Both the position numbers and the translations under genes were made by a program. Shown here piece after piece: positions 2,931-17,695 of a DNA stretch of 64,000 nt (positions within the stretch are counted from its first letter, which is position 1; each line of letters starts with the position of its first letter). The notes beneath the pieces are model-generated. The model saw nothing but the letters and a program-made list of their open reading frames with translations. It made no database searches and was not told where the DNA came from. The stretch comes from Escherichia phage ALITA, in the sequence record PP359570; one strand, written 5' to 3'.

Positions 2931-4337
2931 ATGCCAGCACCAAAATCATGGGAACAATATAAAGAAGAATTAACACCCCTTGCTAAAAATCACAACATTC
3001 AGATTCTGGGTTATATTGGTGAATGGAAAGGGAGCAAGACTAAACTTAAGCTATCTTGCTCTGATCATGGGGAGTGGGAAAGTACCATAATCAATAGCTT
3101 TAAAACTAAAGGCGGTAAATGTTGCCCCGATTGCAATGGTCGTAGAAAAGTAACAGAAGAAAAGGAATGTATTTCCCTTGTTGATGTTGCTAAAGAAAGA
3201 GGGTTTACTTTTATAGGTCTTGCCGAAGAGTGGCGAGGTGTGCTAACAAAAATCCGCATAGTTTGCCCTAAACATGGAGAGTGGAACACCACGACCATTA
3301 GTGGTTTTAGGAAGGGACGTGGTTGTCCGGCATGTGCAAGTAATAAGCCGTTAACATGGGAAACAGAATTACCGATCTTGGAAGAGATAGCACAGAAGAA
3401 GGGGTATCAGGTGTTAGGGTACGTGGGAGAATGGAAAGGGATTGATACAAAACTTGATTTGTTGTGTCACTGTGGTAACAGATGGGATACTACAAGTATT
3501 AACAGTTTTAAACATGATCATGGTTGTCCTTTATGTGGGTATGAGAATACAAGGAAGGCACAAACAATACCCGACGATCAACATATTGCAGATTTCTTTT
3601 CTACAGGGAAATTTAAGGAAGGCACTATCTTTACCAATACAGGGAAACGTAGTTGTAGTAAAAACAAGGACATTATCTGGATGATCGAATGTCCTGTTTG
3701 CTCTCATGATGAGTATGTGCAAGCAGGTGTATGTGATGGTAAGTTTTATATGACACGTAGCGATCTTAAGGCTGGACACTTGCCCTGCCGCTGTGCAACT
3801 AACTCTCATTATACAGAAAATCAGATTACCTACAGGGTAAAAAAGGAAGTAGAAGGGAGAGGGTATGTCTGGGTAGGTTGGATCGGTAAACCGTCTATAA
3901 GACTGGGTAATTTTAAATATCTTTGTCTTGTTCATGGGGAACAAATTGGTAGTGCTTATCGCTTACTATATCAGGATAATGGTTGTCCACAATGTGCAGG
4001 TCATAGTCAGCAGCAATTGTATGTTAATGTTGTTAAAGATAATGGTATTATAGTTGCTCTTAAGTTTGGTATATCTAAAGATAGTGCTAGGAGATTAAAC
4101 ATTCAAAATAGGCGTAATATGTTTTTTATGGAGCGTATTTGTTTATATGATTTTAGTACAGTGAAGCAGTGTAAGGCTGCTGAAAGAGCTATAAAGAAAA
4201 AATTAAAAACTGGTATCTTAACAGCAAGAGAGTTGAAAGATGGTTATACAGAAACAGTAAGTGTTTCTGATTTGGAAAATCTTCAAAAAATTATTACACA
4301 ATATGGTGGCAAATTAGTATACAGTAAGGAGGTGTAA
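2931..4337 (+). CDS. multi-Zn-ribbon protein with C-terminal T5orf172/GIY-YIG-like domain (possible homing-type nuclease)
   Basis: 4-5 tandem ~50-aa repeats (xGYxGEWKGxxTKLxLxCxxHGEWxTTxxxF...GCPxC); C-terminus LKFGIS...ERAIKKKL resembles T5orf172. Confidence 0.55.
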   Translation: MPAPKSWEQYKEELTPLAKNHNIQILGYIGEWKGSKTKLKLSCSDHGEWESTIINSFKTKGGKCCPDCNGRRKVTEEKECISLVDVAKERGFTFIGLAEEWRGVLTKIRIVCPKHGEWNTTTISGFRKGRGCPACASNKPLTWETELPILEEIAQKKGYQVLGYVGEWKGIDTKLDLLCHCGNRWDTTSINSFKHDHGCPLCGYENTRKAQTIPDDQHIADFFSTGKFKEGTIFTNTGKRSCSKNKDIIWMIECPVCSHDEYVQAGVCDGKFYMTRSDLKAGHLPCRCATNSHYTENQITYRVKKEVEGRGYVWVGWIGKPSIRLGNFKYLCLVHGEQIGSAYRLLYQDNGCPQCAGHSQQQLYVNVVKDNGIIVALKFGISKDSARRLNIQNRRNMFFMERICLYDFSTVKQCKAAERAIKKKLKTGILTARELKDGYTETVSVSDLENLQKIITQYGGKLVYSKEV

Positions 4338-4889: not shown

Positions 4890-5104
4890 TATTTTGAAAA
4901 TTTTTATTTTTATAAAAAGGGGTGTGGGTTTCATGTACGGAAATCCACCCTCTGAATAATATATCCAGAGTAAGTAGTATTCTGTACTCTGTTAATAAAG
5001 TATTTAATTTGTTTGTTGGATTATGGTGGCTGATCTTTAAAAGGCATACTATCTCTTAACTACTACTTATAACAAAACAGTAAAATCCTTTTTATAAAAG
5101 TACA

Positions 5105-5305
5105 AAATTATTTAAAGTTTTTACAGATTTTCGGGTACAAATTTTGAAAATGAAAAGTTCAAGTTTGGTCAAAATTATTTAAAGTTTTTGTACGTATTTC
5201 TGTCCAGATTTTGAAAATGAAAACTTCAATTTTTTAAAAATTCCCCAGTTTATTTAAAGTTTTTTTGCCTTTTTCCGTAGAAAAATCAAAAATGAAAAGT
5301 TCAAT
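5105..5305. repeat. three imperfect direct repeats (~67-75 bp iterons)
   Basis: Blocks TTATTTAAAGTTTTT (5108, 5175, 5249) and GAAAATGAAAAGTTCAA (5144, 5210, 5287) recur in the same order. Confidence 0.6.
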
Positions 5306-5327
5306 TTCGTGTTTTTATAGGTGTGTT

Positions 5328-5439
5328 AATGAGAATCATTTTCGTTTGTAAATGAGAATCATTATCATTTAACTATGTAAGTGATAATCATTCTCAGTAA
5401 GAGAATGAGAATCATTAGCAAATGAGAATTTTTCTCATT
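5328..5439. promoter_or_regulatory. array of five Fur-box-like operators (AATGAGAATCATT)
   Basis: 13-mers at 5328, 5351, 5380, 5404 and the perfect palindrome AATGAGAA-TTT-TTCTCATT at 5421-5439; the 19-mer ending at 5364 matches GATAATGATAATCATTATC at 16/19. Confidence 0.5.
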
Positions 5440-5674
5440 TACAGAATAACGCGCAGGGGCGGTGTTTGTCTCGCGCTCCCGTGTCCCCTCGCCATACAAT
5501 AAGAATAGCATAACCAATAACAAAAGCAAGCGATTATTTTTATCTTTACATTTCTTTACAAATTTATTTTAGACGAGCTACCGGCGATCAACCTTCCAAC
5601 CAGTGCCCCCTGGTATGTTAGCCCCGCCTTTACGCCGTGGGGTGGCGTTTCCTCTTCTGTATGTAAAACAGTAT

Positions 5675-5693
5675 AAGCCCGATCCCTGGGCTT
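5675..5693 (-). terminator. intrinsic terminator AAGCCC-N7-GGGCTT
   Basis: Hairpin 7 nt after stop of 5701..5967 on minus strand, followed by atactgtttt. Confidence 0.5.
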
Positions 5694-5700
5694 GTCAAGA

Positions 5701-5967
5701 TTATTTTTTGTTTTCTTGCCAGGATAGGACACCTAACCAAAAATACATGTCGCCCCGCGCCCCTGGTGGGATCTTGCTTTCCCCGCCGCCACTGCAAGCC
5801 CATAAATAACCATCAGCGAACGGATCAAAGTGATCTATCTCTTCCACCTTATGATCGCCCAGGTTGAGAACGGTTTCAACCTTTAAGCCCGTTGCGCTTG
5901 CTACCTGGTGCACCGTGCCGCCTTGCCAGCCCAGTGAGTGCATGAGATGTAAAGAAGTATTTGTCAT
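5701..5967 (-). CDS. hypothetical protein (only minus-strand gene of the island)
   Basis: 88-aa ORF with its own promoter/hairpin/purine leader upstream and a terminator downstream. Confidence 0.6.
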   Translation of the reverse strand: MTNTSLHLMHSLGWQGGTVHQVASATGLKVETVLNLGDHKVEEIDHFDPFADGYLWACSGGGESKIPPGARGDMYFWLGVLSWQENKK

Positions 5968-6233: not shown

Positions 6234-6329
6234 ATGATCAAGAAAGAAAATAGCTTGACGGTTGGAACGATTAACGCTATCATTCTTGCCGTTCCATTTT
6301 GGATTGTAGTTGCGGTTATTATTTTCTAA
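6234..6329 (+). CDS. 31-aa hydrophobic peptide (hand-called)
   Basis: ATG..TAA, sequence MIKKENSLTVGTINAIILAVPFWIVVAVIIF; lies between promoters 6078 and 6340. Confidence 0.4.
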   Translation: MIKKENSLTVGTINAIILAVPFWIVVAVIIF

Positions 6330-6339
6330 AAAAATATTC

Positions 6340-6397
6340 TTGACAACGTTTTTTAATCTGATAAGATGTATCACATAGGGCGGCAATAGTGCCGCTC
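6340..6397 (+). promoter_or_regulatory. promoter/hairpin cassette C1 (serves 6420)
   Basis: TTGACA-N16-TAAGAT (TGn extended), cacATAG, hairpin GGCGGCA-ATAG-TGCCGC, leader cataacagaagagagaaataatc. Confidence 0.7.
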
Positions 6398-6419
6398 ATA
6401 ACAGAAGAGAGAAATAATC

Positions 6420-16189: not shown

Positions 16190-16260
16190 AATGATAATCA
16201 TTCTTATTTATAGCTGATTATTTATGCAATTTATTGCATAATGCAATAATGATAATCATT
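16190..16260. promoter_or_regulatory. two exact Fur-core 13-mers AATGATAATCATT flanking a triple ATGCAAT/ATTGCAT palindrome
   Basis: 13-mers at 16190-16202 and 16248-16260; ATGCAAT-TT-ATTGCAT-A-ATGCAAT at 16224-16247. Confidence 0.5.
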
Positions 16261-16640
16261 CCTAACTTAAGACCATCTAACCTATAAAATAATAAGTTAT
16301 CTAACTAAATTAAAACTAATTATCTCACTTTTATTTATAACTTACTGTTACTATCTCATTGATAACCTTATATTAAACAACAATAACTAATATAAATCAT
16401 TACTAAGCTAAATATAATCTATCTAACCCTTAAAACTACAATTATAATCTATCTAATTGTTGCACAAAGTAACTATTAAATTGTTAGTAACATTACTAAA
16501 TAATTCACATCCTATCTATTTATGATCTAATCTTTACCTTTCTATCTATTACCTAAATAACCATTTCATACAGTAATTATTCCATATGGTAATCATTTCA
16601 TACAATAATTATAACAAGAAATATAATTCGCAAGCGTATC

Positions 16641-16816: not shown

Positions 16817-17119
16817 TAATGTTTAGAACATTGGCTATAATATAAGCTGCATATAATAAACTATGCAATAATAAACATGGTGAATAATGACACCGATGAT
16901 CATAATGCGCCACCCTCCAGGGGGCGCTATGTAAACACAAAGAAATCTTTCTTGTCAAGAAAATATTGCCACTATTGCGCAAAATTATTTTTATCTGAAT
17001 AGATGATTTTTCATACTATTGCCCCTATAACATACCTCATTTGTTGAGCCTACTTTCTTAAAAGCGCAATAAATCAGAATTATCTTGATTTTTAGGGCGT
17101 TTTATAGTACAGAAAGTAT

Positions 17120-17138
17120 GCAAATGATAATCATTATC
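17120..17138. promoter_or_regulatory. Fur-box-like site (17/19 to GATAATGATAATCATTATC)
   Basis: gcaAATGATAATCATTATC read directly from the sequence. Confidence 0.5.
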
Positions 17139-17305
17139 AGCTATCTTCCACGGGTAGCACTATTTCACGCCAGATCATTTCATTTGGCAAGGTGTATATA
17201 GATGTTTAGACTTGCCAAGCCATTGATTTACTTAGAATTTATCTGTTTTGTTGTGAGTAATACCTTTCTTACTCAGAAAATAATCAAAAGTCTTATAAGT
17301 CATTG

Positions 17306-17336
17306 AATGATAATACAAATGATAATTATTCTCATT
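17306..17336. promoter_or_regulatory. tandem Fur-hexamer-like repeats
   Basis: AATGATAATacaAATGATAATTATTCTCATT. Confidence 0.4.
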
Positions 17337-17695
17337 GATATTTGAGGGGGACGGTCGGCAGAAATCGGGGGGCGCTGAAAATCGCGTTAAGCACCTCTCG
17401 CAAGCGAGCAGTATTTTGCGGCAAGTTATTGATATTATTGACTTTACGCTTATGAAAAGGGGGTGTGTCGAAATAAATCGGGTATACCGGAAAATTTTTG
17501 TGGCATAGATATTTATTTGTCTATATTATGTACAAAGGGGTGTATTAAAAATAATAGGTATATATAGAATAATTGATAGGGAAATCCTATACTAATCCCT
17601 CCATTAATGATGTTTCTATGTTGCTGTTATTGTAATAGATGAAAAGACGCTGTATGATGTGTGGCATGAAACGTAAACTTATAAAGGAGTCTGAT

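Follow-up and report, generated by a model that had tools for sequence, protein, structure and literature searches.

Fur-type palindromes in a conserved non-coding module of Escherichia phage ALITA and related lytic phages

The Fur boxes of enterobacteria, such as those of iucA (aerobactin), fepA-fes, entC, fecI and ryhB, are 19-bp palindromes with the 7-1-7 core TGA(G/T)AAT-N-ATT(C/A)TCA. Among phages, stx1 is a Fur-controlled cargo gene of a temperate phage, cyanophages carry PhoB boxes and NtcA sites, and the primary origin of T7 consists of two tandem promoters followed by an AT-rich region. The sitABCD genes on lambdoid temperate phages are under Fur control (PMC6969025), and CtrA sites in phages of Alphaproteobacteria are among the matters treated in PMC9437464. 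The present analysis concerns five palindromes of the Fur type, packed into positions 5328-5439 of a 64,000-nt stretch of Escherichia phage ALITA (sequence record PP359570; the whole stretch is called the window below), and the non-coding module to which they belong.

The phage boxes have the same 19-bp palindrome as the enterobacterial ones, score equally high or higher, and in several cases have secondary sites shifted by 6 bp, a spacing to which the motif's own periodicity contributes. They differ in belonging to a strictly lytic phage genome, in lying 56-167 nt downstream of a promoter (predicted sites), in forming discrete sites 17-29 bp apart, and in preferring G at position 6. The phages with PhoB, NtcA or CtrA sites are comparable in that a virulent phage carries sites for a global regulator of its host and its programme partly follows host physiology; here, however, the regulator would be the iron sensor Fur, and the target is a non-coding module together with the terminal repeat, in place of promoters for lysis or auxiliary metabolic genes. 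With sitABCD and stx1 the locus shares a Fur box on phage DNA, yet in those prophages a single box covers the promoter of a cargo operon related to iron, whereas the present array occurs in a lytic phage with no iron-related gene nearby. A full-text literature search for Fur in connection with Stephanstirmvirinae, Vequintavirinae, lytic coliphages or lytic phages generally returned nothing relevant, and the rV5 genome paper mentions a non-coding block and no Fur sites (PMC3606486). Fur boxes as such, Fur boxes on temperate-phage cargo and sites for other host regulators in lytic phages are therefore known, while no report could be found of conserved arrays of apparent Fur sites in strictly lytic enterobacterial phages.

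The five boxes and their resemblance to Fur sites

The 13-mer AATGAGAATCATT begins at 5328, 5351 and 5404, its variant AGTGATAATCATT begins at 5380, and the perfect palindrome AATGAGAA-TTT-TTCTCATT occupies 5421-5439, exactly as an earlier sequence-only reading of this DNA had described; the start-to-start spacings of 23, 29, 24 and 17 agree with the range of 17-29 bp given there. That reading had further reported a 16/19 and a 15/19 match to the Fur consensus GATAATGATAATCATTATC in 19-mers ending at 5364 and 5394. Both matches exist, at the corrected coordinates 5348-5366 and 5377-5395, and two additional 16/19 matches were located at 5325-5343 and 5401-5419.

A Fur matrix was learnt de novo, by a Gibbs-type search with random starts and independently of the classical consensus, from 13 E. 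coli K-12 intergenic regions governing genes known to be repressed by Fur (fepA-fes, fepD-entS, fepB-entC, ryhB, sodA, fecI, fhuF, fhuA, cirA, tonB, exbB, fiu and gpmA), the choice of regions being guided by the site list of Chen et al. 2007. The search converged on the 19-bp motif AATGA(G/T)AAT-N-ATTATCA(T/A)T, in the same register as the phage palindrome and with GAGAAT in 5 of the 13 E. coli sites. The E. coli sites reached 7.9-22.0 bits (median 18.8) when scored by leave-one-out, and the phage boxes scored 16.7-24.2 bits; box 2 exceeded every training score and overlaps the consensus 19-mer at 5348-5366. As a control of specificity, all five matches of at least 12 bits in the 17.5-kb ent cluster fell inside its three Fur-controlled intergenic regions.

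For a frequency matrix built from 33 distinct phage boxes, the correlation with that of E. coli was r = 0.92 in register and fell to about 0 once the two were offset by 1-2 nt. The 7-1-7 inverted-repeat core, which is the cited model of the Fur site core, is shared with the E. coli sites, with the same position preferences except at position 6. The 13-mer is also the core of the Fur box located ~20-70 nt upstream of iucA on ColV-type plasmids, a region that scored 16.0 and 13.3 bits with the same matrix, and iucA is listed among the footprinted Fur sites (Chen et al. 2007). Five of the nine strong sites of the window carry a secondary match of at least 8.9 bits at exactly -6 bp (for box 3 at 5374-5392 with 10.1 bits, for box 4 at 5398-5416 with 8.9 bits), for part of which the motif's own 6-bp periodicity accounts (r = 0.68 at shift 6); genuine Fur clusters consist of overlapping sites 6 (or 3) bp apart (Chen et al. 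2007). Resemblance to Fur boxes is strongly supported by these comparisons, and judged by their letters the boxes could not be separated from high-affinity Fur sites. The consensus sequences of ArgR, Zur, Cra and TyrR were compared by eye and were set aside, as their half-site spacing or sequence did not fit.

Allowing up to two mismatches, the window has 17 copies of the 13-mer where 5.3 are expected, and none of 100 shuffles reached 17. Dinucleotide shuffles gave 0.185 matrix matches of at least 15 bits per 64 kb, where 9 were observed, and 0.0025 in the 811-nt gap containing the boxes (4890-5700), where 5 were observed; shuffling of the 112 bp itself gave 0.0045. The nine top matches of the whole 64 kb all fell within three non-coding spots. 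The sequence-only reading had judged the array far from random and had proposed scoring it with a Fur matrix, scores no better than those of shuffled AT-rich DNA being taken as contrary evidence; with five boxes observed for 0.0025 in the shuffled local gap, the scores do exceed those of shuffled DNA, and its judgement holds.

A conserved non-coding module with two leftward promoters

Sensitive blastn matched 251 phage records. From the proximal palindrome rightward (5421-5680), the sequence is 70-87% identical to that of members of another subfamily, Vequintavirinae, including SSE121, 4MG, phiTE, CR8, CR9, Kashira and Hena1, and similar matches came from Klebsiella phages. The module common to Stephanstirmvirinae and Vequintavirinae comprises ~750 nt of non-coding DNA and consists, from left to right, of three AT-rich tandem repeats (60-75 nt), one to five Fur-type palindromes, a GC-rich hairpin with an invariant GGTG.TT core, a CTTTAC..CTTTAC repeat, a highly conserved core of ~90 nt, and TGTCAA; two conserved leftward sigma-70 promoters, P1 and P2, lie at its right side (Table 1).

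Sixteen distinct relatives, phages of Escherichia, Salmonella, Klebsiella, Cronobacter, Serratia, Pectobacterium and Erwinia, were aligned. Each of them has the proximal box, at 12.3-25.3 bits with the E. coli matrix (in 4MG as a perfect AATGATAATCATTATCATT), and in all 16 this box is separated by 58-63 nt from the -10 element of P2. Many relatives carry extra boxes at -29 and -58 nt from the proximal one, and essentially no matrix matches were found outside the module in the relatives' short loci. The number of boxes varies from one in SSE121 and Hena1 and two in 4MG and Kashira to three to five in Certrevirus-like and Klebsiella phages, with five in the module of ALITA. The boxes have been kept across subfamilies while the flanking sequence diverged; they are statistically and evolutionarily real, and the module is ancient. 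It was not found in 5,426 E. coli genomes, and of metagenome-assembled contigs only one had it; derivation from the host was rejected on these grounds. A pattern scan of IMG/VR with 14 specified bases returned mostly chance loci and was usable only after profile filtering.

P1 retains 9-11 of 12 consensus matches in all 16 relatives despite a diverged spacer. P2 is promoter-like in all 16 as well (7-10 of 12 matches, and TGn in every case of a 16-nt spacer) and was found again by separate promoter scans of phiTE, CR9, Hena1 and SSE121. The five boxes correspond to about +56 to +167 of the predicted P2 transcript, directly after the GC-rich hairpin. In this hairpin G47, G48, T49, G50, T52 and T53 of the alignment do not vary; on the minus strand the outer stem persists, with two-sided changes at two pairs and more G-U pairs. 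On the far side of the boxes, the AT-rich repeats overlap the second lowest 200 nt of the window in G+C (5067-5266, 21%), and three analogous tandem repeats are present in SSE121 and the other relatives read. The terminator-like hairpin at the left is likely to be the end of the leftward unit, just before the convergent NADAR-domain gene.

Table 1. Coordinates of the boxes and of the associated features in the ALITA window (strand as assigned; scores with the E. coli-derived Fur matrix)
Feature	Position	Strand	Sequence or structure	Remark
Fur-type box 1 (distal)	5328..5346	.	AATGAGAATCATTTTCGTT	19.8 bits
Fur-type box 2	5351..5369	.	AATGAGAATCATTATCATT	24.2 bits, top match in the 64-kb window
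Fur-type box 3	5380..5398	.	AGTGATAATCATTCTCAGT	16.7 bits
Fur-type box 4	5404..5422	.	AATGAGAATCATTAGCAAA	19.2 bits
Fur-type box 5 (proximal)	5421..5439	.	AATGAGAATTTTTCTCATT	18.4 bits; kept in 16/16 aligned relatives
Terminator-like hairpin	4913..4948	-	hairpin then UUUUU	91-nt stretch -17.6 kcal/mol, z = -2.1
Three AT-rich tandem direct repeats	5089..5307	.	~67-75 nt each	immediately left of the boxes
GC-rich hairpin	5451..5492	.	GGTGTTTGTCT core, variable stems	between proximal box and P2
P2(-), leftward sigma-70-type promoter	5502..5529	-	TTGCTT, 16-nt spacer, TGC-TATTCT (extended -10)	predicted start ~5495
Direct repeat	5545..5559	-	GTAAA-N5-GTAAA	just upstream of the P2 -35; sole occurrence in window
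Most conserved non-coding core	5575..5660	.	CTACCGGCGATC.ACCTTCC ... GTTAGCCCCGCCTTT.CGCCGTGGGGTGGCG	70-87% identity, two subfamilies
P1(-), leftward sigma-70 promoter	5670..5698	-	TTGACA, 17-nt spacer, TATACT	11/12 matches in window
Second cluster of Fur-like boxes	16190..16266	.		16190-16208, 21.2 bits; 16242-16260 and 16248-16266, 12.5 and 10.1 bits
Equivalent of the 343-bp direct terminal repeat of phi92	17047..17389	.		phi92 annotation and k-mer mapping

Near the genome end there are four more Fur-like boxes, two of which fall in the terminal repeat. The remaining strong matches of the window start at 16190, 16242/16248, 17117/17123 and 17312/17318, within a 1.7-kb gap free of open reading frames (ORFs). 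Those at 16.2 kb adjoin the most AT-rich 200 nt of the window (16283-16482, 19% G+C). Within 16190-16482, two Fur-like boxes flank the palindrome TTATGCAATTTATTGCATAATGCAA, and the AT-rich stretch beyond carries ATCTATCTAA-type repeats. The terminal-repeat equivalent holds two pairs of boxes, at 17117-17141 (15.4 and 15.5 bits at 17117 and 17123) and at 17312-17336 (11.0 and 22.9 bits at 17312 and 17318), and a rightward promoter-like site at 17184-17212, which in phi92 has TTGACA. Fur-like boxes also occur ~10 kb downstream of the module in Vequintavirinae-like contigs. Some of these contigs, among them L008, L016, L093 and L131, contain a second, inverted and partial cassette, composed of a Fur-like box, GAAT, an AGCGGGCA hairpin and TATTCT; the L016 copy (4960-5100), ~7 kb away from the main module, has a degenerate box and lies in intergenic DNA with a leftward gene on either side. 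Given the repeated boxes at the genome end and these second cassettes, the motif can be regarded as a regulatory word that recurs in these genomes and is confined to their non-coding regions.

Several further observations concern the module itself. The CTTTAC..CTTTAC equivalent of the GTAAA repeat is kept in the aligned relatives, with small changes in Kashira and Hena1, and a 10-nt insertion in Justusliebigvirus and Phapecoctavirus leaves the repeat on the same helical face. It resembles the CpxR-P consensus; a true CpxR site would add an envelope-stress input to the module. The P1 spacer (5675-5693) is a GC hairpin with covarying stems in relatives, and looks, on the minus strand, like the terminator of the leftward gene beyond P1, so that terminator and promoter overlap. 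In Raoultella phage Ro1 (6150-7180) a gene is located between a full copy of the module and a duplicate of its 3' half. The related Klebsiella phage K23PH08C2 has an annotated HNH endonuclease gene beneath its homologous match, and the conserved core may therefore be a homing target.

The window belongs to a Justusliebigvirus (phi92-like) of the subfamily Stephanstirmvirinae, whose annotated relatives are inny, alia, EmilieFrey and phi92; the Justusliebigvirus relatives are strictly lytic myoviruses of ~148 kb. Megablast of the 811-nt gap matched 150 phage records, the best being Escherichia phage PD114 (99%). Near-identical genomes have been deposited as phages of Campylobacter, Acinetobacter and Pseudomonas, for which the host labels are probably wrong or reflect contamination. 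Since the gap is flanked by a rightward NADAR-domain gene (end 4889) and a leftward gene for 88 amino acids (5967..5701), it is a convergent junction. The sequence-only reading had called the region ORF-free, which is adequate in practice: no ORF of at least 60 amino acids is present in 4890-5602, and one mechanical TTG ORF of 54 amino acids crosses the box-bearing gap on the minus strand (5365..5529). Its description of the boxes as lying at the edge of an island fits the step in G+C from ~0.24 to ~0.54 directly to their right. Directly upstream of the NADAR-domain gene, a 468-amino-acid protein (2931-4337) has four CapR-homology repeats and weak matches to T5orf172, DUF723 and treble-clef zinc fingers.

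Possible functions of the array

The best-supported geometry places a putative array of operators within the leader of a non-coding unit that points leftward, with further boxes at the genome end. The conservation of P1 and P2, the fixed distance of 58-63 nt and the weakness of any rightward promoter over the boxes argue for operators of this leftward unit and not of the early genes; such a rightward promoter has only 5-8 of 12 matches, and four relatives are without an acceptable -10 hexamer. The sequence-only reading had suggested iron-dependent control of the adjacent early region, where a long rightward array of small genes runs from 6420 behind a promoter at 6340-6367. The positions do not support this, as that promoter is ~900 bp away and has no Fur box, and a 13.1-bit match at 6266 overlaps a different promoter-like site upstream of it. 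Rightward control of the early genes was rejected on position, the boxes being located downstream of two leftward promoters. The early promoter itself consists of TTGACA, a 16-nt spacer and TAAGAT with TG, and the early leader ATGTATCACAT.GGGCG.CA...GCCGC (window 6340-6400) is also kept in SSE121 and Hena1 before the first downstream gene.

We give about even weight to the proposal that the palindromes are operators of host Fur through which iron gates leftward transcription into the AT-rich repeats. P1 and P2 would fire leftward through the GC-rich hairpin, then the operator array, then the repeats. With plentiful iron, Fur-Fe2+ on the array would block or silence transcription into the repeats; with scarce iron the array would be free and transcription would proceed. 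Five boxes in place of the ancestral one may give a stronger block, and may offset the weak repression that is possible with Fur sites downstream of a promoter; as a side effect, the extra boxes may soak up Fur once the genome has been replicated. Fur binding in the infected cell, a roadblock rather than promoter occlusion, and the role of the leftward transcription are the parts of this scheme that we infer. As the three tandem repeats gave no structure signal when folded as RNA on either strand (z ~0), a result that itself counts against the scheme, and as their G+C content is 21%, they are regarded as a DNA-level element.

Several other points weigh against gating by Fur. The boxes in the window overlap no recognisable sigma-70 promoter, the best rightward one over the proximal box having 5 of 12 matches. 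In E. coli, 303 of 363 Fur clusters overlap a sigma-70 promoter and 60 do not, and Fur sites between promoter and start codon may repress only weakly (Chen et al. 2007). The spacings of the boxes, 17-29 bp here and 29 bp in relatives, have no obvious helical phasing. The phage boxes favour G at position 6 (G 0.65, T 0.30), where E. coli sites favour T (0.69). Lastly, folding energies and covariation of the alignment were too close on the two strands to assign a strand or to establish an RNA, for which reason the conservation of the promoters was used instead.

The preference for G at position 6 could mark a binder other than Fur. The boxes would then be operators or iterons of a dimeric DNA-binding protein of the phage, which could be a replication initiator or a genome-end protein, or of another non-Fur factor, an alternative that we consider unlikely. 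Boxes inside the terminal repeat and beside the two stretches of the window richest in AT are reminiscent of origins and end-processing sites, and a conserved small gene, that for 88 amino acids (5701-5967, minus strand), adjoins the module. However, the fit to the Fur matrix extends to secondary preferences, and the iteron form of the idea is opposed by the drop to a single box in SSE121 and Hena1, although the boxes adjoin AT-rich repeats as in iteron origins. A tblastn search of 50,697 phage records with E. coli Fur revealed no homologue in Stephanstirmvirinae or Vequintavirinae. The 88-amino-acid protein is confined to 151 phage records and was not detected in SSE121, 4MG, CR9 or Hena1, all of which keep boxes. 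Its structure model has five helices (predicted local distance difference test, pLDDT, 93), and its 21 homologue clusters all come from phage-sized or short contigs; no Pfam family, no significant fold neighbour and no recognisable DNA-binding fold could be assigned, and the model describes an orphan fold restricted to these phages. As a binder of the boxes this neighbour was set aside, being missing from several box-keeping phages and without a DNA-binding fold match. A repressor encoded by the phage whose operators merely look like Fur boxes, as the sequence-only reading had also considered, is disfavoured by the lack of a Fur homologue and by the patchy occurrence and fold of this protein, the remaining phage genes not having been screened. 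Fur, in turn, is conserved in all host genera concerned. With no Fur in the phages and a patchy neighbour, host Fur would be the most economical binder.

The similarity of the folds on both strands leaves room for a rightward Fur-repressed RNA. According to this explanation, which we regard as distinctly unlikely, the proximal box overlaps a weak rightward promoter repressed by Fur, and an iron-starvation RNA of ~200 nt extends to the hairpin at ~5617-5650, antisense to P1 and P2, in the manner of RyhB or PrrF. Like those RNAs, the locus has a conserved, structured non-coding sequence of ~200 nt with a Fur-type box immediately before it; unlike them, it gave no sequence or covariance-model match, and its rightward promoter is weak or absent in this genus. 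A promoter of the form TTGAAT-18-CAGAAT, with the box filling the spacer and 8 of 12 matches, is present in 9 of the 16 relatives (Vequintavirinae), and GAAT after the box is invariant. Its -35 is nevertheless absent in the window and other Stephanstirmvirinae (5-6 of 12), and its -10 is without the key A at position 2 in phiTE, KP13-16, L008 and L016. The plus-strand hairpin (alignment columns 213-253) contains G-U pairs that never vary. In the divergent Hena1, one compensatory change (C-G to A-U) and several one-sided ones (U-G to C-G) preserve it, and a long-range helix of the minus strand is broken there. Terminator-like sites on the plus strand were scored at 5624-5648 and at the same place in SSE121, but the U-tract after the hairpin is not conserved, no terminator was scored in phiTE, CR9 or Hena1, and the folding energies of the alignment do not favour the plus strand. 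No described RNA was found in a scan of the 64 kb with Rfam 15 at gathering thresholds and a tRNA scan, and a permissive Rfam scan of 4890-5760 gave chance-level matches only, with PrrF at 17.7 bits against a gathering score of 90.

Multicopy Fur sites titrate Fur, which is the principle of the Fur titration assay. The sequence-only reading had raised the idea of such a sponge, which derepresses host iron uptake. In this view the array would titrate Fur as the genome replicates, and host iron uptake or TonB-dependent receptors would be derepressed. The nine sites of at least 15 bits in the window of this genus are in its favour, two of them being in the terminal repeat and hence present twice per packaged genome, as is the growth in box number from one to five in some lineages. 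However, relatives keep the module with a single box, which makes titration unlikely as the ancestral function. Seunavirus, Henunavirus and Kashira have one or two boxes, always at the fixed distance from P2; this points to a positional, cis-acting role, and a sponge could work without any set geometry. What a lytic phage would gain from it late in infection is also not evident, and titration as the purpose of the array appears improbable. The idea that the boxes bind no protein and arose by chance, from AT-rich repeats or from an RNA hairpin is effectively refuted: although the region is AT-rich and repetitive and sub-threshold Rfam hairpin matches cover 5328-5439, dinucleotide-preserving shuffles almost never reach the scores of the boxes, the boxes outlast their flanks across subfamilies, and G and T alternate at position 6 of one arm while the opposite arm does not compensate, a pattern seen in protein-binding sites rather than in RNA stems.

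What the module may mean for these phages

Gating of leftward transcription by host Fur may be part of a larger arrangement, a host-signal gate that would be new for lytic phages; we put this forward as speculation with only a slim likelihood. Tandem promoters directed into AT-rich repeats would prime or activate replication, as in a T7-like origin, or a terminal-region programme, with the Fur array as the iron gate and the same operators marking the terminal repeat. The GTAAA site would serve as a response-regulator-like input, and timing would follow iron and the state of the envelope. The likeness to the primary origin of T7 consists in the tandem promoters P1 and P2 pointing into the second most AT-rich stretch of the window; here, in contrast, the promoters are of the host sigma-70 type, an operator array lies between promoters and repeats, and the origin role is speculative. 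Relatives of rV5 possess a T7-like PolA and a gp4-type primase-helicase, and a skew analysis of rV5 found no origin signal (PMC3606486).

The analysis delineates a non-coding module of ~750 nt that is deeply conserved and includes two conserved promoters, and its boxes suggest that the phages carrying them may read the iron status of the host. Phages like phi92, phAPEC8 and rV5 have a broad host range and are popular candidates for therapy and biocontrol, and the sites of their use, such as gut, blood, urine and food, are settings of limiting iron with Fur inactive. Should infection, the timing of replication or early transcription hinge on the occupancy of these boxes by Fur, the efficacy of such phages would be predictably iron-dependent.

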